This document shows, piece by piece, positions 1,566 to 29,340 of a DNA stretch of 37,383 nt. The notes below the pieces were generated by a model, which was given only the letters and a program-made list of their open reading frames with translations, was not told the DNA's origin and searched no databases. Origin of the DNA: Chlamydiota bacterium (GTDB lineage Bacteria > Chlamydiota > Chlamydiia > Chlamydiales > Rhabdochlamydiaceae). The DNA lies in the NCBI GenBank assembly GCA_013041585.1, contig JABEVM010000073.1:1-37383 (forward strand), given 5' to 3'. The position numbers and the translations under genes were made by a program. Numbering within the stretch: the first letter of the stretch is position 1; each line of letters opens with the position of its first letter.

Positions 1566-3779
1566 TTAGAGCATCTTTTCCAAAAGCTGCTTGATCAGAA
1601 ACACTTTCAGAGTGGTTTTCTTTTGAATATCAGAAATTTGCATTGTATAGGGGTTTAAGAGTTTTACAACTTCAAAAGGATCTTCAGAATGCATAGTTTT
1701 CTTCTTTTTGCTAGGAGCGCCTCCAACTTCAAGAGAAGGATTATCTAAATCCCAAAACCCTTTTTCTAAATATTCTCCTACCATTTCGTGCGCATCTTTT
1801 TGCGTAAAACAACGATGATAGCAATAAGCATTGGAAAGATTTTTTTCATCTATAGCACGATCAAAAGTATACCCAAATACTCCCAAGTAAGTTACCTCGT
1901 CTACAGTCATTTCCCCGGGTAGGAAGTAATGAACTCCTCTTTTTTCAGAGGTCTCTTTTCTATGCAGGTCCAAGATGCCATGTTGTAAAATTTCTCGGTC
2001 CAATCGCAAGGAGAAAGTATGGAAAGCTACAACTTTATTTTTCACAAATTTTGATTCATTTTTATATCGCGGCTCTTCTACTAGTTTTTGAGGATTATCA
2101 AGCACGTTCTGCACACGCTCTGCGTAGATAATTTCTGATGGAGAAGGAACTGGCTCAGGGGGTGAAGCGCGAGATAGAGTAATCGGAGCAATCTCTACGG
2201 TTTTTGGGGTGCTTTTGGAACTTCCCCCCACAGAAACTTTTTTTACTGCATCAATTGTTTCTTTAGGGTTTGAAACGATTTCTTGAGGTTTTATAACGAT
2301 GTGTTGAGGAGCTTTTTGTTTAGGAGTTTTTTTCTCGCTTGGAGAAGCTTCAATGCTTTTATGAGATGAGGGCAATTCTTTTATGGGAGGTTTCATTTTC
2401 CCAAAAAGCTCGTCAGGATGAGGAAAAGTTTTTCCTCCTATGATAGATAATCTGGAAGCGAATAAAACAAGTTTATGTTCTTTTGAAATTTTTTGAGGAG
2501 TTTGACTGAATAAAACCTCATATCCTACTCGATATATTCTTTCATAGACGCTTTGATGGAAAAAATATTCCTCAGAAAGTTTATAATAGGTTGAAAAATT
2601 CAGTAGATTTGTATCCCGATAAAGGACCCGTGCTTGATACTCTTGCATAACTATCCTATATGTATCTAAGATGGGCTGTAGAGGAAGTTCATGATAATAC
2701 GAAGGAGCTGCAATACCGTATTTGAAAATCAAAGGCAGGAATGCATCATAAAGTGCTATCAGTTGTTGATCATCCTTTTTTTTCTCTTGTACGAAGAGAC
2801 AAGAATCAACTCCTTTTAAAACCAGTAATAAATAAGGCTGTAAAGTAGAAGGCATCGTATCGTTCTCATAGCTTGCAGTCAGGATGCGTTTGATTTCTAA
2901 AACCTTTTTCATACTTACATGTCGAAAATCTGCAACAATATCTACTTTTTTCCCCGCATTTTCTGATACCTTTCTTATATTTTCTTTTGTTTCATCAGAA
3001 AAAGTTGAACACAAAATCAAAGAAAGACCTGCATCAAATTTAGCTAACTCTTCTAAAAATTCTAAGGTCGAAATTCTAATTTGTGTATCTGACGAGTTTA
3101 GATTAGCTGCTTGCAAAATGTGTCCTGAAGACCGGATCACATTTTCGCTTTTTTCGATAGCTTGAATCCGAAACTGAAACTTGGAGGATTTTAACAATAC
3201 TGTGCAAGCTTCACGTTGGAAATTTAGTAAAGAAAGGAGATGTTGATATTCTTTGCACTTTTCACGTGTTTCAAGAGTGTTTATCTTATCAACTACCTTA
3301 TCCCATTTTTTCTCTACAGCGCTGACTTGCCTAGCAGATTCCTTTTCAATTTGGGCATTTACTTTACCACGAAAATTTCCAAAATATTTTCCATTCAATG
3401 TAAGAAAATCAATTTCAGTATTGCTACCATAGCTAAGTAAAAAATCGTAGACGACAATCGCAGATTTGACATGAAGCAGGTCTCGAAAGGCATGAGGAAT
3501 TCCGAGCAGATGTTCAAGAACGCCCTCTAATAGCAATACAATTTTTTCCGATGCTCTTGTGTCATTAATGTGAAGGAGAGAGCTGTTTGATGAAGTGGCG
3601 AACAAATCGCGAGAATCTTCGCTTGAAGCATAGAGGGAAACAAGCCCCCCTTTACTAGACCAGGCGTAATGATTGGGATAAGAAAAAGCAACTTCAAGAT
3701 TTTTTGTAAAATCAGATAAATTTTGAGGCGCTGGGAATCCGGTCGAATGCACAAAGTGATGGATCGATACGCTATTCAT
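1566..3779 (-). CDS. large hypothetical protein (orphan; two globular parts joined by a Pro/Lys/Ser-rich linker)
   Basis: The long ORF opens at GTG 3803. ATG at 3779 (MNSVSIHH...) has a GAAGGGG RBS 6 nt upstream and is the more likely start. The low-complexity linker reads ...SSHKSIEASPSEKKTPKQKAPQ...PPEPVPSPSE. No catalytic motif recognised. A 40-nt gap to the next gene downstream suggests co-transcription. Confidence 0.55.
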   Translation of the reverse strand: MNSVSIHHFVHSTGFPAPQNLSDFTKNLEVAFSYPNHYAWSSKGGLVSLYASSEDSRDLFATSSNSSLLHINDTRASEKIVLLLEGVLEHLLGIPHAFRDLLHVKSAIVVYDFLLSYGSNTEIDFLTLNGKYFGNFRGKVNAQIEKESARQVSAVEKKWDKVVDKINTLETREKCKEYQHLLSLLNFQREACTVLLKSSKFQFRIQAIEKSENVIRSSGHILQAANLNSSDTQIRISTLEFLEELAKFDAGLSLILCSTFSDETKENIRKVSENAGKKVDIVADFRHVSMKKVLEIKRILTASYENDTMPSTLQPYLLLVLKGVDSCLFVQEKKKDDQQLIALYDAFLPLIFKYGIAAPSYYHELPLQPILDTYRIVMQEYQARVLYRDTNLLNFSTYYKLSEEYFFHQSVYERIYRVGYEVLFSQTPQKISKEHKLVLFASRLSIIGGKTFPHPDELFGKMKPPIKELPSSHKSIEASPSEKKTPKQKAPQHIVIKPQEIVSNPKETIDAVKKVSVGGSSKSTPKTVEIAPITLSRASPPEPVPSPSEIIYAERVQNVLDNPQKLVEEPRYKNESKFVKNKVVAFHTFSLRLDREILQHGILDLHRKETSEKRGVHYFLPGEMTVDEVTYLGVFGYTFDRAIDEKNLSNAYCYHRCFTQKDAHEMVGEYLEKGFWDLDNPSLEVGGAPSKKKKTMHSEDPFEVVKLLNPYTMQISDIQKKTTLKVFLIKQLLEKML

Positions 3780-3881
3780 ATTATGCCCCTTCTTTTCGGG
3801 CACGGATGTTATCTTTTCCAGATGTTTAGTTCAATCAGTAATAATAGATGTAAATCACTGAGTTAAAATATCTTGTTTTTC

Positions 3882-5541: not shown

Positions 5542-6909
5542 CTACCACTCAGCAAAAATGGCAAAGATTGCGTAAAAAATTCCAGTAGGGATAGATGCTG
5601 CCAAGAGTAAATATAAGGGTGAGATCTTATCTTGGAAGAATTTCTTAAGGATTACCTGTCCAGCAGGATTGGGAACGTTCGCTATCACTGTAAGGCCTCC
5701 ACCTACTACAACCCCGCTCATAACCGCATACTTTAAAGAGGTCGTTAAATCAGGAAGGAGTGTGGCTAAATAAGCAATGGCGGTATTATCATTAAATGCC
5801 GTCAAAGCCATACTAATGAGCATCATTTCATTGTTACCTAATCCTCCAAGAATTGATTGAATCCACCAAGCTTGCAAACCGCCGTGTATCAAAAGGCCCG
5901 CCAAAAACAAACCAACAAGTAGAGGTCTTTTTAGTTGCACAGGGAATTGATGGGGCAGTGTTGCCTGATGAAACCCTAAAAACATAAGAAAAGATCCAAT
6001 GAAAATGGGGGGATAATAAGAATTTAAAATAACCCAAACTAAGAAAGTAACATGAACTGCTGTGACCCAAAACGGAATCTTATCCCCTTCTTTTTCTTCA
6101 GACATCGCCAAGTTTTTCTTATCGATGGAGATAAGTTCTTTTCGAAAAAAGAAAAAATAACAAAGTGTCGAACAGATAATTCCCACGATGGCTTTGATCC
6201 CAAAATGAGTAAACATGAACCATGAGCTCCAATCCCAAATCCTCTGCACAATCAAAACAGGCGGCGCTGAAAAATTAGTAAGGAGCCCCCCTACAGAAAT
6301 ATTGGAAAATAAAAGCCCTAATGTTCCATAGGCTAGTTTTTTACTTGGCTCATGCACATAAAAATGTTTCCCGAGTAAAAGTGCGCATAAGGTCATAGCG
6401 CCGGCCTCGGTGATAAACGAACCTAAAATAGGCCCTGCAATTAAAATGCTAAGCCACCAAGCAGCAGAGCTTCCTCCAAGTATCTTAGTAATAAATCGAA
6501 GTCCATTTTCTGAAAGGACAAGTATCGGTTTTGTGGCCGTTAAACTCATGATCACCACAACCAGCATCGGCTCGATGTAAACTCTTTTAGACAAATAGTC
6601 CACAGCAGAGGACCAACTATAAAAGCAAATAATTGTAAAAAGAAGAGGGATGACCCAAAGTCCAAAAACAACCTCTACCTCTCCTAAAAACCGTAGAATT
6701 TCAGAAAAGAAAGTGATGGAAATTTTGCGTCTTTTCTCGATCTTTTGCAGTGGGGCTTTCTCTGCAATTTTCTCTGACCATTTTGTAAAGAAATTTGCAA
6801 ATAAGGTATGAAGAACGGCGAGCAAAAAAATACATAAACAGACAATCTTAAAATTCATAGAAGATTGCGTTTGAAGAAATTCTGAGTCTACAAAACCTAG
6901 CATATTCAT
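5542..6909 (-). CDS. polytopic inner-membrane transporter, possibly the 'putative Na+/H+ antiporter' (former DUF1504) family; substrate unknown
   Basis: 455 aa with about 11-12 hydrophobic helices. The start codon overlaps the pncA stop (ATGA at 6906-6909). The family assignment is from memory of overall architecture only. Confidence 0.45.
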   Translation of the reverse strand: MNMLGFVDSEFLQTQSSMNFKIVCLCIFLLAVLHTLFANFFTKWSEKIAEKAPLQKIEKRRKISITFFSEILRFLGEVEVVFGLWVIPLLFTIICFYSWSSAVDYLSKRVYIEPMLVVVIMSLTATKPILVLSENGLRFITKILGGSSAAWWLSILIAGPILGSFITEAGAMTLCALLLGKHFYVHEPSKKLAYGTLGLLFSNISVGGLLTNFSAPPVLIVQRIWDWSSWFMFTHFGIKAIVGIICSTLCYFFFFRKELISIDKKNLAMSEEKEGDKIPFWVTAVHVTFLVWVILNSYYPPIFIGSFLMFLGFHQATLPHQFPVQLKRPLLVGLFLAGLLIHGGLQAWWIQSILGGLGNNEMMLISMALTAFNDNTAIAYLATLLPDLTTSLKYAVMSGVVVGGGLTVIANVPNPAGQVILKKFFQDKISPLYLLLAASIPTGIFYAIFAIFAEW

Positions 6910-7529
6910 AGTGATTGTTCCACTTGTAACGAATTTGTAATGATTACCCCTTTTTCCTTCATTGATGCTAGCGCCTTTTTTTCATCATCTGGATGTAAGT
7001 TAATAGCCCTGCAAGCATCTTCAATGACAAAAGCAGAAAATCCAAGCTCTATTGCATCAAGCGCAGAATATAAAACACAGTACTCAGTCGCAATTCCGGC
7101 TAAGTAAATCTCTGTTATCCCTTTGGATCGCAGATATTTCTGAAGACCTGTATCTTTCTTCCTAGCGTTATCAAAAAAAGCGCTATAGCTGTCAATTTCG
7201 GGGTCCCAGCCTTTATAAAAATAAGCTGCAATTTTCTCTTTTCTTAACCCTTTTACGATTTCACTTCCATACGCATTCTCTATACAATGCTCAGGCCAGA
7301 GAATTTGTTTGATCCCACCTATTTCGATCACATCTCCTATTTTTCTTCCTGGATGATTGCTTGCAAAACTTACATGATTCTTAGGATGGAAATCCAAACA
7401 TGCCAAGACTATGGAAAACTGTTCAGAAAGATGATTGATAATAGGAATGATTTCATCAGCTCCAGCCACCCCTAAACGACCTGTCGGCATAAAATCGTTT
7501 TCCATATCTACAATCAAAAGAGCTTTCAT
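6906..7529 (-). CDS. pncA: nicotinamidase/pyrazinamidase (isochorismatase superfamily)
   Basis: 207 aa. LLIVDMENDF carries the catalytic Asp, LDFHPKNHVSF the metal-binding Asp/His cluster, and GIATEYCV the catalytic Cys. Confidence 0.85.
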   Translation of the reverse strand: MKALLIVDMENDFMPTGRLGVAGADEIIPIINHLSEQFSIVLACLDFHPKNHVSFASNHPGRKIGDVIEIGGIKQILWPEHCIENAYGSEIVKGLRKEKIAAYFYKGWDPEIDSYSAFFDNARKKDTGLQKYLRSKGITEIYLAGIATEYCVLYSALDAIELGFSAFVIEDACRAINLHPDDEKKALASMKEKGVIITNSLQVEQSL

Positions 7530-7536
7530 GTTTTAC

Positions 7537-8997
7537 CTAAGCTTTTGTGCTTTCTTTAATGAGCTGAATTTTTTTCTTATATAATCCCTCTTCTAAGCCG
7601 CAAAAATAGGGATCAGGATCAGCAAGCTTACGTATCCCTTTGGGAAATTTCGATAATTCTTGAAGAGTCCTTTTTTGAAGTGCTTGTAAAGAGGGCTTTT
7701 TATAGACCAAAGAACCTTGAGAAAATATTTTTTGTAAGAGGTCGATGTAAGGTTGTCCTTTTTCAATTTCCTTTTTCTTGCCTCCTACTCCAAATTCAAT
7801 CATAGCGTTTTCCCCTGTTGGAGGATTTTCTACATTGTAGACCATATCCGCAATATATCCATTTTCTGATACAAATCTACGAACTTGCAAAATTCCTGGG
7901 TCTGTCGTTTTTGTAACCTGGTCGGACACTTTAAGTTTATACTCCCAAGGTTTACCGGGATCTCGGAGGGCTGCGAGTTTATAAACTCCATCTAATGCAG
8001 GTTGTCCCCCACCTGTCATTAAATGAGTTCCTACTCCCCAAACATTGATCTTACCTCCAGAGCGCTTACAATTCTCGATCAAGAATTCATCAAGCTCATT
8101 ACTTGCCATAATGGATAGATTTGTAAATCCTGCCTCATCGAGCTTTTTGCGGATTTTTTGGCTTAAAACTACTAAATCCCCTGAGTCTAATCTGACTCCA
8201 ATAAGTTCGTGATGAGAGCTTCTCATCTTCTTCGCAACTCGGATTGCTTTTTCTATCCCTTTTAGGGAATCGTATGTATCGATAAGAAAAACAGAGCTAT
8301 CAGGAAAAATCTCTGAAAAGGCTTGAAACGAATCTTCTTCCTCAGAAAAGGCCATAATCCAGCTGTGCGCTTGGGTCCCCTTTACAGGGATTCCAAAGAG
8401 CTTACCTGCGAGTAAATGAGAGGTAGATTCGCATCCACCAATGAAAGCTGCGCGGCTTGCGCTAATGGCTCCATCAATTCCTTGTGCACGTCTCATTCCA
8501 AACTCTACAACAGGATCAGATCCTGCAGCCCATACAATACGCGAGGCTTTCGTCGCGATGAGGGTCTGAAAATTTATAATATTGAGCAGAGGACTTTCTA
8601 ATAGCTGCGCCTGCAGAAGAGGTCCCTTCACTCGTAAGATAGGCTCATAGGGAAAGACAGGAGTTCCTTCCTCTAGCGCATCCAAATCACAGGTAAAACG
8701 CATCTCTCCAAGGAATTGTAGAAATTTTTCTTCGAACAGTTTTTTTCCAAACCTATCGGTTAGGTTACCAAGATAGACCAAATCATCAGGCGTAAAACGC
8801 AAGTTTTCTAAAAAATTGATAGCCGTCTCAAGTCCTGCGGCAATTGCAAAAGCTCCTCCAAAGGGCTTTTTGCGAAAAAAAAGATGAAATACAGCCTCTT
8901 TATTTTGCATCCCCATCTTCCAGTATCCATATGCCATTGTAAGCTGATATAGATCTGTAAGGAGCGACAGGGATTGCGAATAAATCTCTGTGCTCAT
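7537..8997 (-). CDS. pncB: nicotinate phosphoribosyltransferase
   Basis: 486 aa. The N-terminal LLTDLYQLTMAYGYW signature, FGMRRAQG, the GTQAHSW phosphohistidine region and GVGT near the C-terminal part are all present. A 7-nt gap separates it from pncA. Confidence 0.85.
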   Translation of the reverse strand: MSTEIYSQSLSLLTDLYQLTMAYGYWKMGMQNKEAVFHLFFRKKPFGGAFAIAAGLETAINFLENLRFTPDDLVYLGNLTDRFGKKLFEEKFLQFLGEMRFTCDLDALEEGTPVFPYEPILRVKGPLLQAQLLESPLLNIINFQTLIATKASRIVWAAGSDPVVEFGMRRAQGIDGAISASRAAFIGGCESTSHLLAGKLFGIPVKGTQAHSWIMAFSEEEDSFQAFSEIFPDSSVFLIDTYDSLKGIEKAIRVAKKMRSSHHELIGVRLDSGDLVVLSQKIRKKLDEAGFTNLSIMASNELDEFLIENCKRSGGKINVWGVGTHLMTGGGQPALDGVYKLAALRDPGKPWEYKLKVSDQVTKTTDPGILQVRRFVSENGYIADMVYNVENPPTGENAMIEFGVGGKKKEIEKGQPYIDLLQKIFSQGSLVYKKPSLQALQKRTLQELSKFPKGIRKLADPDPYFCGLEEGLYKKKIQLIKESTKA

Positions 8998-9368
8998 CGT
9001 TTATCTGGATGCTGAACTACGATTTGTTCTCTTTTTTTCTCTAAAGCATCGATTTGCAGCTGAATACGTCTTGCAGCTTCTCTATCAGCGTCAGCATCAT
9101 TCCATGCTTGTCTTGCATCCAAATACCGATTGGACTCAAACTGCCAACGTTCTGCATTTAAATCATTATTATACGCCCTAGCAAGGTACATATTTCTACG
9201 ATCTTTAAGCACTTCTATCTCCTTATTAATAGAATCGAGCTCCTGTGCTACAGGAGTAGTCTGCTGTGCAATTTCCGAAGAAAAAACATAAGAGTCTTTT
9301 TCTACTACAACCTTACCAAAGACCCACAACGCAGTCATGATAACAATGACAAAAGTTATTCTCTTCAC
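8994..9368 (-). CDS. small membrane-anchored coiled-coil protein (hypothetical)
   Basis: 124 aa. GTG start with an AGAGGGAG RBS 6 nt upstream. N-terminal hydrophobic anchor ITFVIVIMTALWVF, then a charged helical region. The stop overlaps the pncB start (ATGA at 8994-8997). Confidence 0.55.
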   Translation of the reverse strand: MKRITFVIVIMTALWVFGKVVVEKDSYVFSSEIAQQTTPVAQELDSINKEIEVLKDRRNMYLARAYNNDLNAERWQFESNRYLDARQAWNDADADREAARRIQLQIDALEKKREQIVVQHPDKR

Positions 9369-9512
9369 CTGGCACTCCCTCTTTTTCGATCATTATAATT
9401 TGACTTATATACAGTTTGGTAAAAAATGAAAAATATTTCTTGAAACTCCGCTGTTGTGAAGATAGAAAAGGCCTGCTAAAATAGGCTATTATCCATAGGC
9501 AATTCCCTTTTT

Positions 9513-10541
9513 ATGAAAAAAATTTTTATTATCCTCTTTCTCTGCGCTGCCCCTCTTGTATGGGGAGAGCCTTCTTTAAAAGAGAGGTTTACCTCCGGGC
9601 AAAAAGGAGACTTTATTGTCACAAAGCAGTCCGACCTCTACTCCATCCTTCTGATTAAGTCGATTTCAGAGCACTTTCTAACCTTGGAAGAGATTTGTGT
9701 TCCTGTCGAAACTTACAAAACGCAAAACCTTTCCTGGAGAGACTGGGTCAAAAAACATGCTCCGGGCCATACTTCTTGGAACATATACCAGATAGACCTT
9801 CATGAAAATCAGCTCTCAGAATCTTTTTCTGTCATGCACAGGCGCTGGAATTTTCTCGAACAATCCCAGAACTTTTTCGCAAAACTCTTGGCTCTACCCT
9901 TTTATAAGGTTCTCCCAGAGAAACAACGAAAAATTGGCGCCGCTTCTTCCGATGAAATCGACAAAAGGGCCCTTTGGACTCCTCCTCTTACTATAGATGG
10001 AAAATCGACGAAGCACCCCTCGTTTGAAGTGTTTGAGACCACTTGGCCCAAAGACATGTCAGAACTATCTCAAAGCGCTGTGCAAATGTACTTTAATAAA
10101 AATGAGCCAACTTTTCCTTTTCCCTATTGGATTGAAATCAGTACGACCCACTACGCTATGCGCATACAAATTGTAGATTCAGGAAGAGGATTTTTCACCC
10201 CTTCTGGAGAGATCCCACGAAGAAGCCCTAGATTTTATCAAACCACACAAATACACGAAGACAAAGTCATCGTTCCTATCTTAACTCCAACCTACTATAC
10301 GAAATTTGGCTTAGTAGCTTTTGACCTTACAACGGGGAAAAGTGCATCTTTTATAGTAAGCCCTAAAAAGAGCTCCTCGCCAGAGAAGCTGGACCTATTC
10401 CTAGAAAAGAAAGAATTAGATGAGCGCCTTGAAAAAGGCCACACTTATAAATGGATCCTTACTATTCCGGGTCATCCTGAGATTTCTGTAGAATCGGATG
10501 AGAACTTTACTTGGCCTGTAAAACAGGCTAGAAAACCGTAA
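9513..10541 (+). CDS. exported hypothetical protein
   Basis: 342 aa with a Sec-type leader MKKIFIILFLCAAPLVWG/EP. No recognisable domain. Confidence 0.55.
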   Translation: MKKIFIILFLCAAPLVWGEPSLKERFTSGQKGDFIVTKQSDLYSILLIKSISEHFLTLEEICVPVETYKTQNLSWRDWVKKHAPGHTSWNIYQIDLHENQLSESFSVMHRRWNFLEQSQNFFAKLLALPFYKVLPEKQRKIGAASSDEIDKRALWTPPLTIDGKSTKHPSFEVFETTWPKDMSELSQSAVQMYFNKNEPTFPFPYWIEISTTHYAMRIQIVDSGRGFFTPSGEIPRRSPRFYQTTQIHEDKVIVPILTPTYYTKFGLVAFDLTTGKSASFIVSPKKSSSPEKLDLFLEKKELDERLEKGHTYKWILTIPGHPEISVESDENFTWPVKQARKP

Positions 10542-10711
10542 TTGTAAACGATTTTAAATCCCCTATTTCACAATAAGGTCTTTCAAGAATAGACTTACTA
10601 CGTATTTTTTTATCTAGCCCAAAGCTCCCCACTTCTTTTGAAATCTTCTTGCAATTTTTTGAATCAATCCCTCACACTGCTTGCTAATTCAAACCACAAA
10701 TACATGTAAGA

Positions 10712-12592
10712 GTGATGGATAAAACTTATTCTCTTCGGAAATCTAAAAAAGTCTTTTTTCACGTTTATCATGGTATTCGCCGTAAGAAAGATAAAATCCC
10801 AGCTACAGAAAAACAAAGGATTTATGATCTTCTTACCCAGCTGCAGACAGAGATCCTCGCAAAAAATAAAGAGCAGGCGAGCCTTTTAGCAAAGCAAGCA
10901 GAGAGAATCTCTGCTCCTTTTTTCAAAAAGAACTTTTTTTCTCAATCTCTAGAATTTGTTTTTGCCTTAGCTTTCGCAATCTGCGTCGCGTTTTTAGTCC
11001 GTCAGGTTTGGTTCGAGTTTTACGAGATTCCAACGGGTTCTATGAGGCCCACTTTCAAAGAGCAAGATCGCCTCATGGTTTCTAAGACCACGTTTGGTAT
11101 CAATACTCCGATGACCACCTCTCAAATGTATTTTGATACAGACTTAGTACAGAGAAGCGGCATTGTTATATTTACCGGCGAAAATATGGACATTTCCGAT
11201 GTAGACACCAACTATTTCTACGTTTTCCCTGGCAAGAAGCAGTATATCAAAAGGCTCATAGCCAAACCCGGAGATACAGTCTATTTCTATGGTGGTAAAA
11301 TCTATGGAATTTCTGCAGAAGGAGAAGATATCACTCCTCAGCTTCAAAGAAAAGAACTAGAAAAGATCGAGCACATTCCGTTCCTTCAGTTTGAAGGAAA
11401 AGTGGTCATTCCAGAGGCTCCAAAAAATGGGATTTCTCCGATTGCCATCCTCTATCAAATGAATGAGCCGGTAGCACGCCTATTCTGTACTCCGACCTAT
11501 CAGATCGAAGGGGAAATGCTCCCACTCGCTCCCCTTACACCGCAACTGAGTCAATATAGCGACCTCTGGGGATTTAAAAATTTTGGCATGTCAAGGCTCC
11601 TTACGAAAGAAGAAGTAAACGAGTGTACAGATAGTGACACATCGTCCATGGAAGAAGGGGTGCTTTACCTGGAAATTCGTCATCATCCGGGCCTGCAAGC
11701 TTTGCACCTCACATCAGACTATTCTGGAAGAGTTCGCCCAGCGCTCAATGTAAATTCTACTGTGATTCCACTACAAAAGCAGCATTTAGAAACTTTGTTT
11801 TCTAACCTGTATACAGCTAGATTTATCGTAAAAAATGAAGTAGCTATGCGCTATGGGATGCCATCTTATCTTTTATCATCCAGTAGTGCTTTCCTTCCAA
11901 AGCTTCCTGGAGTCCCTGATGGTACATACGAATTCTACTATGGCAAAGCATATCAAATTTTTTGGCAGGGGCTCGCTGAAGAATTACCGGCTAACCACCC
12001 TATCTATGAGTTTGATAATAAAAGAATACAAACCTTGTACAACTTAGGGATCGAGTTTGATACAAAATTTTCTCCCTATAGAAAAAAACAACCGCTGTAC
12101 CCATCTAGATATGTCTATTTCTACGAAAAAGACCTCTACGCTTTAGGTGCTCCCCTTCTCACAAAAGAAGATCCCACTCTACTTAACTTCTTGGATCGGG
12201 AATATACCAAACAAACAGCTTCTACCTACAAAGACCCATACCAAGCTTTCCAAGACTATGGCGCTCCTCTAAAAGAAAATGGAGAACTAGATGTAACCTT
12301 TATAAAGCAATATGGACTGAAACTTCCTGCTAAGTCCTATTTGGCACTAGGTGATAACCACGCGATGAGCTCTGACAGTAGAGTATTTGGCTTTGTTCCT
12401 GAAGGAAACCTTCGCGGCGGTCCTGACTTTATTTTCTGGCCTCCCGGCCCTAGATTTGGAGCTCCTGATCAGCCTCCTTATCCATTTGTGAATCTACCAA
12501 GAACAATTGTATGGGCCGTATGCGCTATCATATTAGGAATGTGGTGGGTGGTTCATAAGAAAAGAACGAAACTCCCCATTTCTCTTACATAG
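10712..12592 (+). CDS. lepB: signal peptidase I, long chlamydial-type form
   Basis: 626 aa; the ATG at 10715 may be the true start. It has the Ser box GSMRPTF, the Lys box YIKRLIAKPGDTV and box E GDNHAMSSDSRVFGFVP. A large insertion between the boxes and a C-terminal TM segment are as in Chlamydia LepB (~630 aa). Confidence 0.88.
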   Translation: MMDKTYSLRKSKKVFFHVYHGIRRKKDKIPATEKQRIYDLLTQLQTEILAKNKEQASLLAKQAERISAPFFKKNFFSQSLEFVFALAFAICVAFLVRQVWFEFYEIPTGSMRPTFKEQDRLMVSKTTFGINTPMTTSQMYFDTDLVQRSGIVIFTGENMDISDVDTNYFYVFPGKKQYIKRLIAKPGDTVYFYGGKIYGISAEGEDITPQLQRKELEKIEHIPFLQFEGKVVIPEAPKNGISPIAILYQMNEPVARLFCTPTYQIEGEMLPLAPLTPQLSQYSDLWGFKNFGMSRLLTKEEVNECTDSDTSSMEEGVLYLEIRHHPGLQALHLTSDYSGRVRPALNVNSTVIPLQKQHLETLFSNLYTARFIVKNEVAMRYGMPSYLLSSSSAFLPKLPGVPDGTYEFYYGKAYQIFWQGLAEELPANHPIYEFDNKRIQTLYNLGIEFDTKFSPYRKKQPLYPSRYVYFYEKDLYALGAPLLTKEDPTLLNFLDREYTKQTASTYKDPYQAFQDYGAPLKENGELDVTFIKQYGLKLPAKSYLALGDNHAMSSDSRVFGFVPEGNLRGGPDFIFWPPGPRFGAPDQPPYPFVNLPRTIVWAVCAIILGMWWVVHKKRTKLPISLT

Positions 12593-26572: not shown

Positions 26573-29194
26573 TTAGAAAGAGGGATAGTAAGCCTGTAAT
26601 GGAAGCTCGCTTGGGGTTAAGGAAGAAACAGAAACATTTTGTAGCACGGCCTCTAACAAGGTTTGCTCAGATGTGTCATTGAGCGCATCGATTCTTTCAA
26701 AACACCTAGCGAGCAAGTCTACTTGTGATGGGTCAAGTCCGAGCGTCAATCGAATTGTTGTACATTCCTCACTAAATAACATAGTGAAGTTGGGATGATA
26801 AAATCCCAAACTGAGTCGGTAAAAAATCGGGTGTTTTCCTTCCATGCATTGTAAATAGATGCCCCCTGCGGCAAGAGCAGATCCTCTAATTTGATGTAGA
26901 GGCCCTGAGATCTTAACATCAATAAAAGAAGGATCAGCCTCTTCCTTGATAGGAACAACCCGGTAGCCGCTCTCTTTGTAATTAAGAAGCCTAGAAGATA
27001 TTTTGTTTAAAAGAGCTCTTGTATTCGCAAAGATCTGCTTTTGATAAAGTTCTAACTCCGAAGCTGCATATTGGTAGGCAAGACAAAACCAATTTAGGCT
27101 AAGCCTGTCATTTTGCAAAGCTGGATCCGTTAAAAGAGAGGTAAATGAAGACCATTTTGTATCTTGGTTATGAATCATGTAGAATGGCGCGCCGCAGTAG
27201 TTATCCATTCCAAAAAGATCAAATTTAATGCCACTTTTATAGCAGATGATGTTAAGAGCGCCTGACTGAATCTCTTCCCTAAATTCAGTAAGCAACTGCC
27301 CAACTCTTGGAGAATCGATGAAATCAAGAGTGCAATCTAAAGCAAGAATGAGAGGCATCCCCTGCCTTGTGCTCAAAGATGTATGCAAAACCTCGGAAAC
27401 ATTTTCAACGCTATATGCATCAATTTGAAATTCGGTCCCTCTCCAAACAGGGTTGAACTGAGCTAAGATGAGATCAACTTCTTCCCAATCCTTTTCAGTT
27501 GCATCTTTAATAGAGGATGCGCTTGAAACTAACTTAGCTGCGTTGATGCATTCATAGTAGGTATTTTTCCCATAAAGAACACGAGGCTTTTTACCAATGG
27601 CTTTCTCCGTAGCATTAAAGATACCTGCAATACTTGTCATTGCAGAGGAATGAATCCCATACGATGCCAATGGTTTGAGATCAGATGGAATGCAGTGCAA
27701 AAGATTTTGATAAATAGATGGGAAGTCACCAAAGGTAAATGGAGAAAAAATTTCGAGAAGGGCGCAAAGGCTGGCATGGATCTCTTCAATATGTGAGGCC
27801 ATAGTAAAAAATGGATCTTCAGATCCCTTTTCTTTTAAGTGTTGAAGCTCTTCTTTGATCTTCATCAAGGAAATTTTTGTAACAGAGGACCTAGTTGGAC
27901 AGGTTATGATCTCATTCCATTTCTCTTCTGAAAGGGAAGAAAATAACCCTTTGAGCACATCTAGCGTTCCTTTGAGAAGCAAAGTCTTTTCAGGCTGATT
28001 TGACCTCCAATTTTGTTCAAAAGCATGTAAGTCGGAAACAAACTCATCTTTTGATTCGAGTTTCACCTGAATAGGTGAATGACCATGTTCCAAGGTGATG
28101 ATGTTTGGTGAGCTAGGCCATCTATCTAGCTCAATTCGATTAGCCGAAAGCCCAAAGACCGAGATCCATTGCAAAAGAAACTGATACTGCTCTTCGATTT
28201 TCTCAGAAGATGTAGCAGTAAAGGGAAGTAAGCGAATACCCCCGATCTCTTCTTGTTTCATTCTTTCGATGCAAAGGATTTGATCTATATTTATGTTATA
28301 CTCTTTGCAAGCTTCCATGAACGCAGCTTGATAGGTATTCCAAGTTTGAAGCCATTTTTCCGAATCTTGTCTATCGCCTTTAAAAACTTGAGTTAGATCA
28401 ACAACAACCTTTGAGGGATCCGTCTGCACTCTTAAAGCGATTTTTTTGACGGTTGTTTGTACCCTTTCGTTTTCAGCAATACCAAGAAAAGAAGGGAGAT
28501 AGTCTTGTAAATCGAAAGGGCGTGTCAAGATCAAAGGATAATGGGGAGGATGAGGAAGATCCTGTTTCCAAGCGTTCATCCTATTTTTGTATGCATTAGA
28601 GAGTTTAATCCAAGGACTTCTGGCATACGCATTGGCCGACTGTGGATGTACTTGAAGGCGGGTATCAAAAATGGGACAAATCCAATCGACCACGGAAGGA
28701 AAAAAACCCGTAGATTTGGCAAGCCAGCGCTTCTGTAAAAAGGAAAGAAGTTGGCTCTGTTCCTCAGAAACCGCAGGAATTCGAGAGAGGATTGCTTCGT
28801 TTATATGCCATGAAAATTGAGATGGGGGAATTCCTTTAAAAAAAGAAGGAGAAGGTCCTTTCCCAATTTGAGCAAAAACATGATGAGCTACACTACCGCA
28901 CAGATTACTTAAAAACAGGCATTCCTTTCCTACCTTTGAAGCCCAAGGGGAAATTTGGCATATCCCCCATCCTAACCTTGCCAAGACAAAGGCTGAGCCG
29001 AAAATAGTTCCCGTTCCAACATAGACAGCGCCTTTAGAGATTTTGTGAAGAATAGTATGAATTTTCTCATCAACTTCAAGTGAGGAATCTACCCTTTCCT
29101 TAGAAATTTCAGAGAATCGAGATAAATCATTTGGTTCACATGTTTGTATACAACTTGTAGAAAAGACTATTAATAAAAAAAGAGTTTTCTTCAT
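26573..29194 (-). CDS. large exported protein: unknown ~450-aa N-terminal region plus C-terminal Cys/Met-metabolism PLP-dependent-enzyme-like domain
   Basis: 873 aa with the hydrophobic leader MKKTLFLLIVFSTSC. The C-terminal ~370 aa is colinear with the cystathionine gamma-synthase/beta-lyase family. Matching elements are HSSAMTSIAGI, LILAQFNP, LILALDCTL, CYKSGIKFDLFGMD (Schiff-base Lys position), RLSLGFYHPNFTML and TIRLTLGLDPSQVDLL. Confidence 0.55.
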   Translation of the reverse strand: MKKTLFLLIVFSTSCIQTCEPNDLSRFSEISKERVDSSLEVDEKIHTILHKISKGAVYVGTGTIFGSAFVLARLGWGICQISPWASKVGKECLFLSNLCGSVAHHVFAQIGKGPSPSFFKGIPPSQFSWHINEAILSRIPAVSEEQSQLLSFLQKRWLAKSTGFFPSVVDWICPIFDTRLQVHPQSANAYARSPWIKLSNAYKNRMNAWKQDLPHPPHYPLILTRPFDLQDYLPSFLGIAENERVQTTVKKIALRVQTDPSKVVVDLTQVFKGDRQDSEKWLQTWNTYQAAFMEACKEYNINIDQILCIERMKQEEIGGIRLLPFTATSSEKIEEQYQFLLQWISVFGLSANRIELDRWPSSPNIITLEHGHSPIQVKLESKDEFVSDLHAFEQNWRSNQPEKTLLLKGTLDVLKGLFSSLSEEKWNEIITCPTRSSVTKISLMKIKEELQHLKEKGSEDPFFTMASHIEEIHASLCALLEIFSPFTFGDFPSIYQNLLHCIPSDLKPLASYGIHSSAMTSIAGIFNATEKAIGKKPRVLYGKNTYYECINAAKLVSSASSIKDATEKDWEEVDLILAQFNPVWRGTEFQIDAYSVENVSEVLHTSLSTRQGMPLILALDCTLDFIDSPRVGQLLTEFREEIQSGALNIICYKSGIKFDLFGMDNYCGAPFYMIHNQDTKWSSFTSLLTDPALQNDRLSLNWFCLAYQYAASELELYQKQIFANTRALLNKISSRLLNYKESGYRVVPIKEEADPSFIDVKISGPLHQIRGSALAAGGIYLQCMEGKHPIFYRLSLGFYHPNFTMLFSEECTTIRLTLGLDPSQVDLLARCFERIDALNDTSEQTLLEAVLQNVSVSSLTPSELPLQAYYPSF

Positions 29195-29310
29195 ACCGTC
29201 AAATTAGTAACTATGAACCTATAATTGACATATATAAAAAAGCTGTAAATCATCCAAGATATTTAAAATCCGTATTCTCTCACTCCTTAAAATCCAAGAT
29301 CATAAGAAAT

Positions 29311-29340
29311 AAAAAAGCTCAGGAATAATTCCTGAGCTTT
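29311..29340 (-). terminator. rho-independent terminator of the SMT-like gene
   Basis: On the minus strand, AAAGCTCAGGAA-tta-TTCCTGAGCTTT is followed by TTT, giving a TTTTTT run with the last three stem bases. It lies 29 nt after the stop at 29369. Confidence 0.75.

Follow-up and report, generated by a model that had tools for sequence, protein, structure and literature searches.

A deeply diverged chlamydial protein family with a predicted fold-type I pyridoxal phosphate enzyme module and a conserved companion domain

Pyridoxal 5'-phosphate (PLP) enzymes are among the best-catalogued protein families. Enzymes of PF01053 (e.g., MetB and MetC) are tetramers of ~390 amino acids (aa), with canonical members of ~380-430 aa; they lack the phosphate-binding Arg of the class I/II enzymes, and in MetB the PLP phosphate is bound by Tyr46 and Arg48 of the neighbouring subunit. 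The class I/II enzymes (PF00155), which include the MalY/PatB-type C-S lyases, SphA, BioF and Kbl, carry their phosphate-binding Arg about 8 residues after the Schiff-base Lys (K-x5-G-x-R-x-G). Enzymes of the alpha-oxoamine synthase (AONS) family have a D-x-x-H motif and use His as the residue that stacks on the PLP ring. The protein compared to these systems here is the 873-aa product of a gene at positions 26573..29194 (minus strand) of a 37,383-nucleotide stretch of DNA (the window) from a Chlamydiota bacterium of the Rhabdochlamydiaceae (contig JABEVM010000073.1 of assembly GCA_013041585.1). The open reading frame (ORF) is complete, with an ATG start, 873 codons and a stop codon in the ORF listing. 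An initial annotation, made by eye from the sequence, had described an exported protein with a cryptic Cys/Met-metabolism PLP-enzyme fold behind a long N-terminal region. The gene is here proposed, with a probability of about 0.8 and from a predicted structure combined with residue conservation, to encode an intact, extremely diverged fold-type I PLP enzyme and so to define a chlamydial family that is new.

An AlphaFold2 model of the protein, built with the 67-sequence family alignment A1, has a mean predicted local distance difference test (pLDDT) score of 85 and a predicted template modelling (pTM) score of 0.86. Foldseek comparison of the model to the PDB returns 302 matches at E<=1e-3 with a probability of 1.00, and the best 50 of the 302 are all fold-type I PLP enzymes, in line with the fold suspected at the outset. 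Among these 50, TM-scores per target are 0.45-0.55 and sequence identities 10-14%, with alignments of ~370-410 columns that span nearly the whole of the ~370-400-aa targets. Residues ~401-845 are shown by the model to adopt the fold-type I (aspartate aminotransferase) architecture. This PLP module (residues 401-845; 26660..27994, on the minus strand as are all other features of the gene) begins with helices, which are followed by a large domain of seven strands and a small domain at the C-terminus. Its boundaries are drawn from the broad family, in which the conserved unit is ~445 aa rather than the C-terminal ~370 aa first supposed. The seven strands occur in the order expected of the fold, at residues 510-515, 538-541, 558-561, 575-578, 615-620, 647-652 and 669-674.

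The structural neighbours cover much of the superfamily. The best 50 matches include aspartate beta-decarboxylase, aromatic, aspartate and alanine aminotransferases, the O2/PLP enzymes Plu4 and RohP, BioF, serine hydroxymethyltransferase (SHMT), group II decarboxylases and C-S lyases; the lyase-named matches (3l8a, 8juj, 3b1c and 3t32) are of the MalY/PatB type, which belongs to the class I/II aminotransferase family. The top matches are structures of SphA of the AONS family (9pep, 9dos, 9ds0 and 9dri), an alpha-oxoamine synthase (PMC13351049). The lowest root-mean-square deviations (rmsd), 5.6-6.1 Å, are to BioF (3wy7) and the Claisen-condensation enzyme ThAOS (7poa). The E-values are 5e-7 for the AONS enzymes and 1e-6 to 7e-6 for the aminotransferases, decarboxylases, SHMT and lyases. 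Also among the 50, at rank 29 with a TM-score of 0.50, is LpSPL (4w8i), the sphingosine-1-phosphate lyase (SPL) of Legionella pneumophila, which like the chlamydial protein is a fold-type I PLP protein of an intracellular bacterium. LpSPL, which serves as a secreted effector, can be recognised as a eukaryote-like enzyme of the group II decarboxylase/SPL family, whereas the chlamydial family is not recognisable by sequence and has no specific similarity to SPL.

The residues predicted to bind cofactor and substrate are strongly conserved, as counted over 146 aligned representatives at 50% clustering, of which 134-140 cover each site. Lys657 (27224..27226, codon verified), the predicted Schiff-base (internal aldimine) Lys, lies in the motif S654-G-x-K657-F and is Lys in 138/138 representatives; Ser654, with a predicted role in phosphate binding, is likewise Ser in 138/138. 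Asp620 (27335..27337), the predicted partner of the pyridine nitrogen, is Asp in all 138 and heads the motif D-x-T622-x-D624, in which T622 is kept in 136/138. Arg815 (26750..26752), the predicted binder of the substrate alpha-carboxylate, is Arg in 134/134 within T-I-R-L-T-x-G-L-D-P. The Lys, Asp and Arg picked out by eye in the initial annotation are thus invariant, and a loss of these positions in homologues, which would have spoken against an enzyme of this type, is not seen. Tyr546 (27557..27559), in the motif Y-x-E548, is Tyr in 126 and His in 14 of 140 representatives, the alternation expected of a residue that stacks on the PLP ring; E548 is kept in 139 of the same 140. Asn581 (27452..27454), predicted to hydrogen bond to O3' of PLP, is Asn in 111/140 and forms an F-N-P motif after the strand at 575-578, and G797, with a predicted structural role, is kept in 136/136. 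Further along from the Lys, Asp664 (27203-27205) is Asp in 137/138 representatives and its neighbour Asn665 is Asn in 104/138.

The secondary structure of the model, in which strand order and spacing agree with the fold, places these residues on the elements where the fold would have them: Ser517 at the head of the helix that follows strand 1, Tyr546 after strand 2, Asn581-Pro after strand 4, Asp620 at the end of strand 5, S-G-x-K657 after strand 6, and Arg815 on the last strand of the small domain.

Sequence searches, by contrast, yield no PLP signal. The 873-aa protein has a single noise match in Pfam (Yuri_gagarin, E=0.15) and noise in NCBIfam (anti-sigma antagonist, E=0.011); phmmer finds no PDB match at E<=10, and BLASTP finds no match to Escherichia coli MetB. 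At the profile level, A1 has no PDB match at E<=10 and a second family profile has no PLP match in the PDB. Many full-length homologues of 45-86% identity have no recorded Pfam domain, and every one of the few with a source name is labelled hypothetical, the label that the initial annotation had anticipated from routine annotation. When the family profile is compared by hhalign to small paralogue alignments and to nine fold-type I enzymes of E. coli taken singly, P is never below 0.038 (P=0.19 for E. coli Kbl). Against a PF01053 template of 11 sequences, made up of MetB, MetC and nine homologues from plasmids (28-42% identity), a broad-family module profile (251 sequences; effective number of sequences, Neff, 4.6) gives P=0.16; with class I/II templates of 9 to 11 sequences it gives P=0.27-0.42. 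As a positive control, the same PF01053 template finds the class I/II template with 97.4% probability (E=1.5e-11). Thus, PF01053 and class I/II are much closer to each other than to the chlamydial module, which by the hhalign criterion belongs to neither.

At the level of motifs, the module nonetheless resembles PF01053. The ORF coordinates and six query motifs quoted in the initial annotation are correct (HSSAMTSIAGI at 515-525, LILAQFNP at 575-582, LILALDCTL at 615-623, CYKSGIKFDLFGMD at 651-664, RLSLGFYHPNFTML at 793-806 and TIRLTLGLDPSQVDLL at 813-828), as are the MetB strings that it gave, when compared to E. coli MetB from NC_000913.3. Ten landmarks stand in the same order in the 873-aa protein and MetB. 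A greedy profile-profile alignment to the PF01053 template pairs N581-N148, D620-D173, T622-T175, S654-S195, K657-K198, S795-S326, H800-H336 and R815-R361. An equivalent alignment to MalY pairs Y546-Y121, N581-N173, S654-S230, K657-K233 and R815-R365, and Arg815 is also paired by alignment with R374 of AspC. The colinearity with MetB that had been noted by eye is therefore reproduced (7-8 of 8 landmarks), and it goes beyond chance since identical catalytic pairs number 7/8 with the true column order, 1 with the reversed profile and at most 4 in 30 block-shuffled profiles. The raw score of this test (18.2) lies inside the shuffled range of 14.5-36.2, with an overall score P of 0.16-0.22. The landmark colinearity is real and mirrors the plan of the superfamily.

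The likeness to PF01053 comprises the superfamily fold, the landmark order, the N-P, D-x-T, S-x-x-K, S-L-G, H-P and R-x-(S/T)-x-G motifs, and the absence of a phosphate-binding Arg after the Lys. The chlamydial versions are degenerate (D-C-T, S-G-x-K-F...D, S-L-G-F-Y-H-P and I-R-L-T-L-G), with an overall similarity that is not significant. On the basis of D-x-T, the aromatic residue after the Lys, S-L-G...H-P, the missing class I/II Arg and a Lys-to-Arg distance of 158 residues (163 in MetB, as against 128 in AspC and 128-132 in class I/II enzymes), PF01053 is the nearest known family by motif, in a resemblance rather than a membership. The Lys-to-SLG spacing differs from that of MetB by 10 residues (138 here and 128 in MetB, where ~140 and ~138 had been counted by hand) and the SLG-to-Arg spacing by 15; the chlamydial protein is also much longer than the ~390-aa PF01053 proteins, with its extra conserved N-terminal domain, leader and hairpin, and no segment like that of Tyr46 and Arg48 in MetB was identified in it. 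The proposed membership of the Cys/Met-metabolism family is not upheld: there is no Pfam match even at E<=10, and the hhalign score (P=0.16) falls within the range of the shuffled profiles. Of 60 PF01053 entries of the PDB (from at least 91 distinct sequences), none is among the best 50 of the 302 Foldseek matches. The class I/II enzymes are the best PDB neighbours (E 5e-7 to 7e-6), and Y121, N173, S230, K233 and R365 of MalY are the counterparts of Y546, N581, S654, K657 and R815. They differ from the chlamydial module in the lack of any Pfam or significant hhalign match between them, in the shorter Lys-to-Arg distance, and in the phosphate-binding Arg (K...G-x-R-x-G), in place of which the chlamydial family has D664/N665.

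The family is sizeable and chlamydial. An exhaustive HMMER search with the A1 profile through 1.84 billion representatives finds 656 clusters at E<=1e-3, of which 478 remain at a threshold of E<=1e-10 and 277 at one of E<=1e-30. Many of the clusters share only a ~440-aa module (query ~401-845), which nearly always forms the very C-terminus of the protein and is preceded by an N-terminal extension of anywhere from 25 to 1070 aa. The source names are mostly chlamydial, i.e. Rhabdochlamydiaceae (including Candidatus Rhabdochlamydia and Candidatus Acheromyda), Simkania, Simkaniaceae and Parachlamydiales, with Parachlamydia acanthamoebae UV-7 (F8L1F7/CCB87099.1) and Protochlamydia as further named members; the clusters of 30 divergent members yielded two named taxa. 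All source names that give a family or genus are chlamydial, and the few members from metagenome-assembled genomes labelled Verrucomicrobia or Acidobacteriota are probably misassigned. A homologue search with the Parachlamydia protein found 8 close relatives only, and the diverse alignment A3, used in the same way, retrieved nothing beyond its own first sequence. In the library searched, nothing on this family was found under the accessions, among work on PLP enzymes of the chlamydial groups concerned, or in studies that annotate hypothetical proteins of chlamydiae from structure.

The ~450-aa N-terminal region, described initially as one block of unknown sequence, is composed of a leader, a helical hairpin and a ~290-aa domain (N-domain) that co-occurs with the PLP module. 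The N-domain (residues 112-400; 27995..28861), delimited from conservation and a domain-only model, is alpha/beta with no match to a known fold: modelled alone (pLDDT 70), it has no PDB match at E<=1e-3 and weak aminotransferase matches at E=0.03-0.5. A candidate explanation of the N-domain as a degenerate second PLP half was rejected for want of support (hhalign P=0.27 against the C-terminal module and P>=0.34 against the templates). Dozens of residues of the N-domain are invariant, among them W129, N132, RWLAK 156-160, Q181, H183, P184, Y190, R192, LTRP 223-226, GG.R.LP 318-324 and NR.ELDR 352-358. Its hidden Markov model (HMM) matches 76 of the 121 broad-family members that have >=250 aa before the module, always upstream of the module, and the domain is detected in the Parachlamydia protein and in both kinds of peptidase fusion described below. 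Judged from these sequence distributions, the family core is the N-domain plus the PLP module, with the leader and hairpin a later addition in the Rhabdochlamydiaceae/Simkaniaceae branch. At the other end of the protein, the C-terminal tail (residues 846-873; 26576..26659) is poorly conserved, with pLDDT <50 for residues 855-873.

The leader (residues 1-20; 29135..29194) resembles a Sec signal peptide: after MKK come the hydrophobic core LFLLIVF and then STSC. The sequence MKKTLFLLIVFSTSC given in the initial annotation is present, with a hydrophobic core of 7-8 residues, and a hydrophobic 12-mer occupies the leader position in 103/120 close homologues. Cys15, in S-T-S-C15, is lipobox-like with an atypical Ser at -3; a lipobox-like Cys occurs in only 23/120 close homologues. 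A signal-peptide-like start is found in 25/114 full-length members of the broad family, the others being polar, and the peptidase fusions and the Parachlamydia protein also have polar N-termini. Export, as first claimed for the protein, is accordingly supported in part, by the leaders of close homologues and not by most of the broad family; it is a plausible hypothesis for the 873-aa protein and not a family property. The hairpin (residues 38-110; 28865..29083) is formed in the model by helices 38-79 and 88-110 with pLDDT 81-93. It is Gly/Ala/Ser-rich, has P83, E91 and S96 conserved within the subfamily and contains a conserved Arg and Glu; its HMM matches 38/150 broad-family representatives. 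The two hydrophobic stretches that had been noted at residues 55-110 are present, though moderate: they average 1.07 and 0.73 on the Kyte-Doolittle scale, and nowhere in the protein does a 19-residue window reach 1.4. Chlamydial inclusion membrane (Inc) proteins are marked, close to the N-terminus, by a bilobed hydrophobic domain made up of two transmembrane-grade segments of ~20 aa each. The hairpin may be membrane-associated or Inc-like, or may simply be part of the soluble fold.

Certain relatives are fused to peptidase domains. Among 57 long representatives scanned, out of 150 listed, five of ~1420-1514 aa (P0170, P0190, P0192, P0210 and P0211) combine pentapeptide repeats (at ~180-300), a Peptidase_C26/GATase domain (at ~415-590; C26 E-values down to 1e-25), the N-domain and the PLP module. 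Two others carry a C-terminal Peptidase_M15_4 domain of the VanY type (E=2e-20) in which the SxHxxGxAxD zinc motif is kept; a PDB sequence search with this fused domain gave no match. The Protochlamydia member of the first group (P0170; WP_068467984.1, 1514 aa) is named gamma-glutamyl-GABA hydrolase family protein at NCBI, with no mention of the PLP part. In one metagenomic genome, two PLP-M15 genes (L082:4555-7746 and 8001-11189) encoding 1063 and 1062 aa are in tandem; they lie near genes for H+-PPase, transaldolase and EF-Ts/S2, and a PBP_dimer gene is ~6 kb away.

In the mechanism proposed for the module, PLP would form an internal aldimine with Lys657, and Asp620 would keep the pyridine nitrogen protonated such that the ring serves as an electron sink. 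Tyr546 would stack on the PLP ring, Ser654 and Ser517 would hold the phosphate, and Arg815 would bind the alpha-carboxylate, which implies a substrate whose alpha-carboxylate is free, be it an alpha-amino acid as such or an amino-acid moiety. The N-domain that precedes the module probably completes or gates the active site. For the Rhabdochlamydiaceae/Simkaniaceae subfamily, it is an even question whether the leader and hairpin serve export or membrane tethering. As to the reaction, a tentative best guess is that an amino acid set free from a peptide is converted without a co-substrate, by beta/gamma-elimination or replacement, or by racemisation. This guess draws on the PF01053-type motifs as the nearest (D-x-T, S-x-x-K-aromatic, S-L-G...H-P and R-x-(S/T)-x-G) and on the occasional fusions to VanY-type M15 and C26 gamma-glutamyl peptidase domains. 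M15 and C26 peptidases free amino acids from unusual bonds, of the D-Ala-D-Ala type and the gamma-glutamyl type, respectively; the fusions together with the invariant Arg815 suggest that the module transforms an amino acid released in this way.

Several observations weigh against the assignment as a working PLP enzyme or against its functional extensions. No sequence method (Pfam, NCBIfam, PDB profiles or hhalign) ties the module to any PLP family, so the fold assignment rests on the predicted structure, for which the TM-scores are modest. D664/N665 stand at the position of the class I/II phosphate-binding Arg, and an acidic residue is unusual beside a phosphate; the pair could mean that the phosphate is bound in another way, that a metal site is present or that the cofactor is a variant one. 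Peptidase fusions occur in just 7/57 of the long representatives scanned, and most of the broad family has no export signal of any kind. A pathway cue from gene neighbourhood is also missing, since the neighbours in the window are absent at 72 related loci. What recurs beside the gene at these loci is a housekeeping gene or a transporter (MFS, EamA, IscS/NifU); the neighbour 'families' met most often are antisense ORFs within the PLP gene homologue itself.

Of the other explanations that fit part of the evidence, one keeps the C-terminal domain as a bona fide, if diverged, PF01053 member, a C-S or C-gamma lyase or synthase whose substrate would be cystathionine, cysteine, methionine or homocysteine. 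Action on host sulfur amino acids, as raised in the initial annotation, is a conjecture for which no observation speaks in particular. The eight paired landmarks, which beat the shuffles and include the family-typical T622-T175, S795-S326, H800-H336 and R815-R361, speak for it, as do the MetB-like Lys-to-Arg distance, the least bad of the hhalign P values and the missing phosphate-binding Arg. The PF01053 template detects another fold-type I family at E=1.5e-11, and there is no Pfam match to PF01053; with a hhalign score no higher than that of shuffled profiles, none of the 60 PF01053 entries among the best 50 structural matches, lyase-named matches that are of the MalY/PatB type, and 873 aa with a conserved N-domain in place of ~380-430 aa, this membership is improbable. 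Peptidoglycan metabolism offers a different role, for example that of a racemase or transaminase for D-Ala, D-Glu or meso-diaminopimelate (DAP), acting downstream of peptidases (fused to it in some family members) on products of peptidoglycan-derived, D-amino-acid or gamma-glutamyl peptides. Fusions to Peptidase_M15_4 with an intact zinc motif and to the gamma-glutamyl hydrolase-type Peptidase_C26, the tandem M15 fusion at ~6 kb from a PBP_dimer gene, the free alpha-carboxylate implied by Arg815 and a subfamily leader that would place the enzyme in the periplasm, the site of the cell wall, all agree with such a role. It is nevertheless rather unlikely, given that the fusions are few and the fusion proteins have no signal peptide, that neither the window nor the 72 related loci present a cell-wall gene neighbourhood, and that there is no similarity to known racemases beyond the superfamily fold. 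BsrV-type broad-spectrum racemases are a precedent for a Sec-exported, cell-wall-linked periplasmic PLP enzyme that acts on free amino acids, but these are of fold-type III (the alanine-racemase fold) and have no sequence or structural relation to the fold-type I chlamydial module. The peptidoglycan/D-amino-acid link is attractive, resting on 7/57 long representatives out of 150 listed. Its fullest form, a chlamydia-specific PLP system for D-amino-acid and cell-wall-peptide chemistry, is a long shot: a racemase, transaminase or lyase would work with M15 and C26 peptidases to supply or salvage D-Ala, D-Glu and DAP in bacteria without canonical racemases, or to destroy immunostimulatory muropeptides, and would be exported to the periplasm or inclusion in Rhabdochlamydiaceae/Simkaniaceae and possibly secreted in others.

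An AONS-like activity (as in serine palmitoyltransferase, BioF or SphA), in which an amino acid and an acyl-thioester are joined at a membrane to form an amino-lipid or sphingoid-type base, would account for SphA as the top Foldseek match, for the low rmsd to BioF and ThAOS and for a possible membrane tether in the subfamily. It is very unlikely, as the AONS E-value of 5e-7 is not separated from the 1e-6 to 7e-6 of other fold-type I enzymes, the comparison to Kbl gives P=0.19, D-C-T-L-D stands in place of D-x-x-H, and the stacking residue is mostly Tyr and not His. A catalytically dead PLP-fold scaffold, be it a pseudoenzyme, a ligand sensor or an interaction domain of a secreted effector, is suggested by the extreme divergence from all known PLP families, by the invariant acidic Asp664 at the phosphate-binding Arg site, and by the polar N-termini and pentapeptide repeats of relatives, both typical features of a secreted effector. 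In a pseudoenzyme, the Schiff-base Lys or the Asp has normally been lost. In the chlamydial family, by contrast, the Lys, Asp, Ser, Arg and stacking aromatic are invariant in 134-140 divergent representatives, which is hard to explain without catalysis or cofactor binding, and makes a dead scaffold just as remote. The reading preferred is, thus, that of an intact fold-type I PLP enzyme of a family of its own.

The window itself is chlamydial, as judged from a CT021-family protein and a Legionella/chlamydia-type major outer membrane protein encoded on it and from the named homologues from Rhabdochlamydiaceae and Simkania. The start of the PLP gene, MKKT(I/L)F, is common to the 873-aa protein and its closest homologue (P0002; 86% identity). 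The gene is monocistronic, in a transcription unit of its own, and has a short-chain dehydrogenase/reductase (SDR), an S-adenosylmethionine (SAM) methyltransferase and a porin as its neighbours in the window. A promoter-like site (TTTACA-17-AATTAT; 29221..29249, minus strand) found by consensus scan lies ~27 nt 5' of the ATG; it is a pattern match, of a kind not commoner in the region than in shuffles. Terminator-like sites number 12 in the region as compared to 3.3 +/- 1.5 in shuffles. That with the longest stem is an intrinsic-terminator-like hairpin (29314..29340, minus strand) of a 12-bp stem followed by a T-run, between the upstream SAM-methyltransferase gene and the PLP gene, which by its sequence is predicted to part the two transcription units. 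The 29314-29340 element is a perfect 12-bp-stem palindrome that scores as a terminator on both strands, and the minus strand then reads TTTATTTCTT.

Converging on the 3' end of the PLP gene is an 88-aa ORF (26268-26534, plus strand) with a signal-peptide-like start (MKSISILSAIFFLSLSS), no Pfam match and a tail very rich in His and Asp (19 His and 24 Asp in 88 residues); from this composition it looks like a secreted metal-binding peptide. One loose His/Lys/Asp-rich counterpart occurs among the 72 related loci (L029:573-872), and it does not adjoin the homologue there. Elsewhere in the window, two adjacent large ORFs on the minus strand (227-1525 and 1566-3803; 432 and 745 aa) have no Pfam family at E<=1e-5 and may be further unannotated chlamydial proteins. 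The stretch at 22000-25000, with a G+C content of 0.43 as compared to ~0.39 in the rest of the window, holds an APH-type phosphotransferase (23284-24162), a SnoaL-like protein, an alpha/beta hydrolase and a methyltransferase, and may be a horizontally acquired accessory block. At 6906-8997 (minus strand), a nicotinamidase-like gene of the isochorismatase family adjoins a nicotinate phosphoribosyltransferase gene in what looks like an NAD salvage pair, and genes for a Na+/H+ antiporter and a Trp/Tyr permease are nearby.

What is new is a deeply diverged family within the known fold-type I PLP superfamily, and its companion domain is new as well. Pfam, NCBIfam and PDB-profile searches all miss this family of at least 656 sequence clusters, and the case illustrates that structure prediction can recover a fold where profile methods fail even with a positive control in place. 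The conserved N-domain is a further target for structural work. The invariant catalytic residues point to a working enzyme, which would add an amino-acid-transforming activity to the small metabolic repertoire of the obligate intracellular chlamydiae. In the subfamily with a leader the enzyme may act outside the cytoplasm, and other relatives resemble secreted effectors. The rare peptidase fusions provide a lead on the supply and handling of D-amino acids and cell-wall peptides in chlamydiae.

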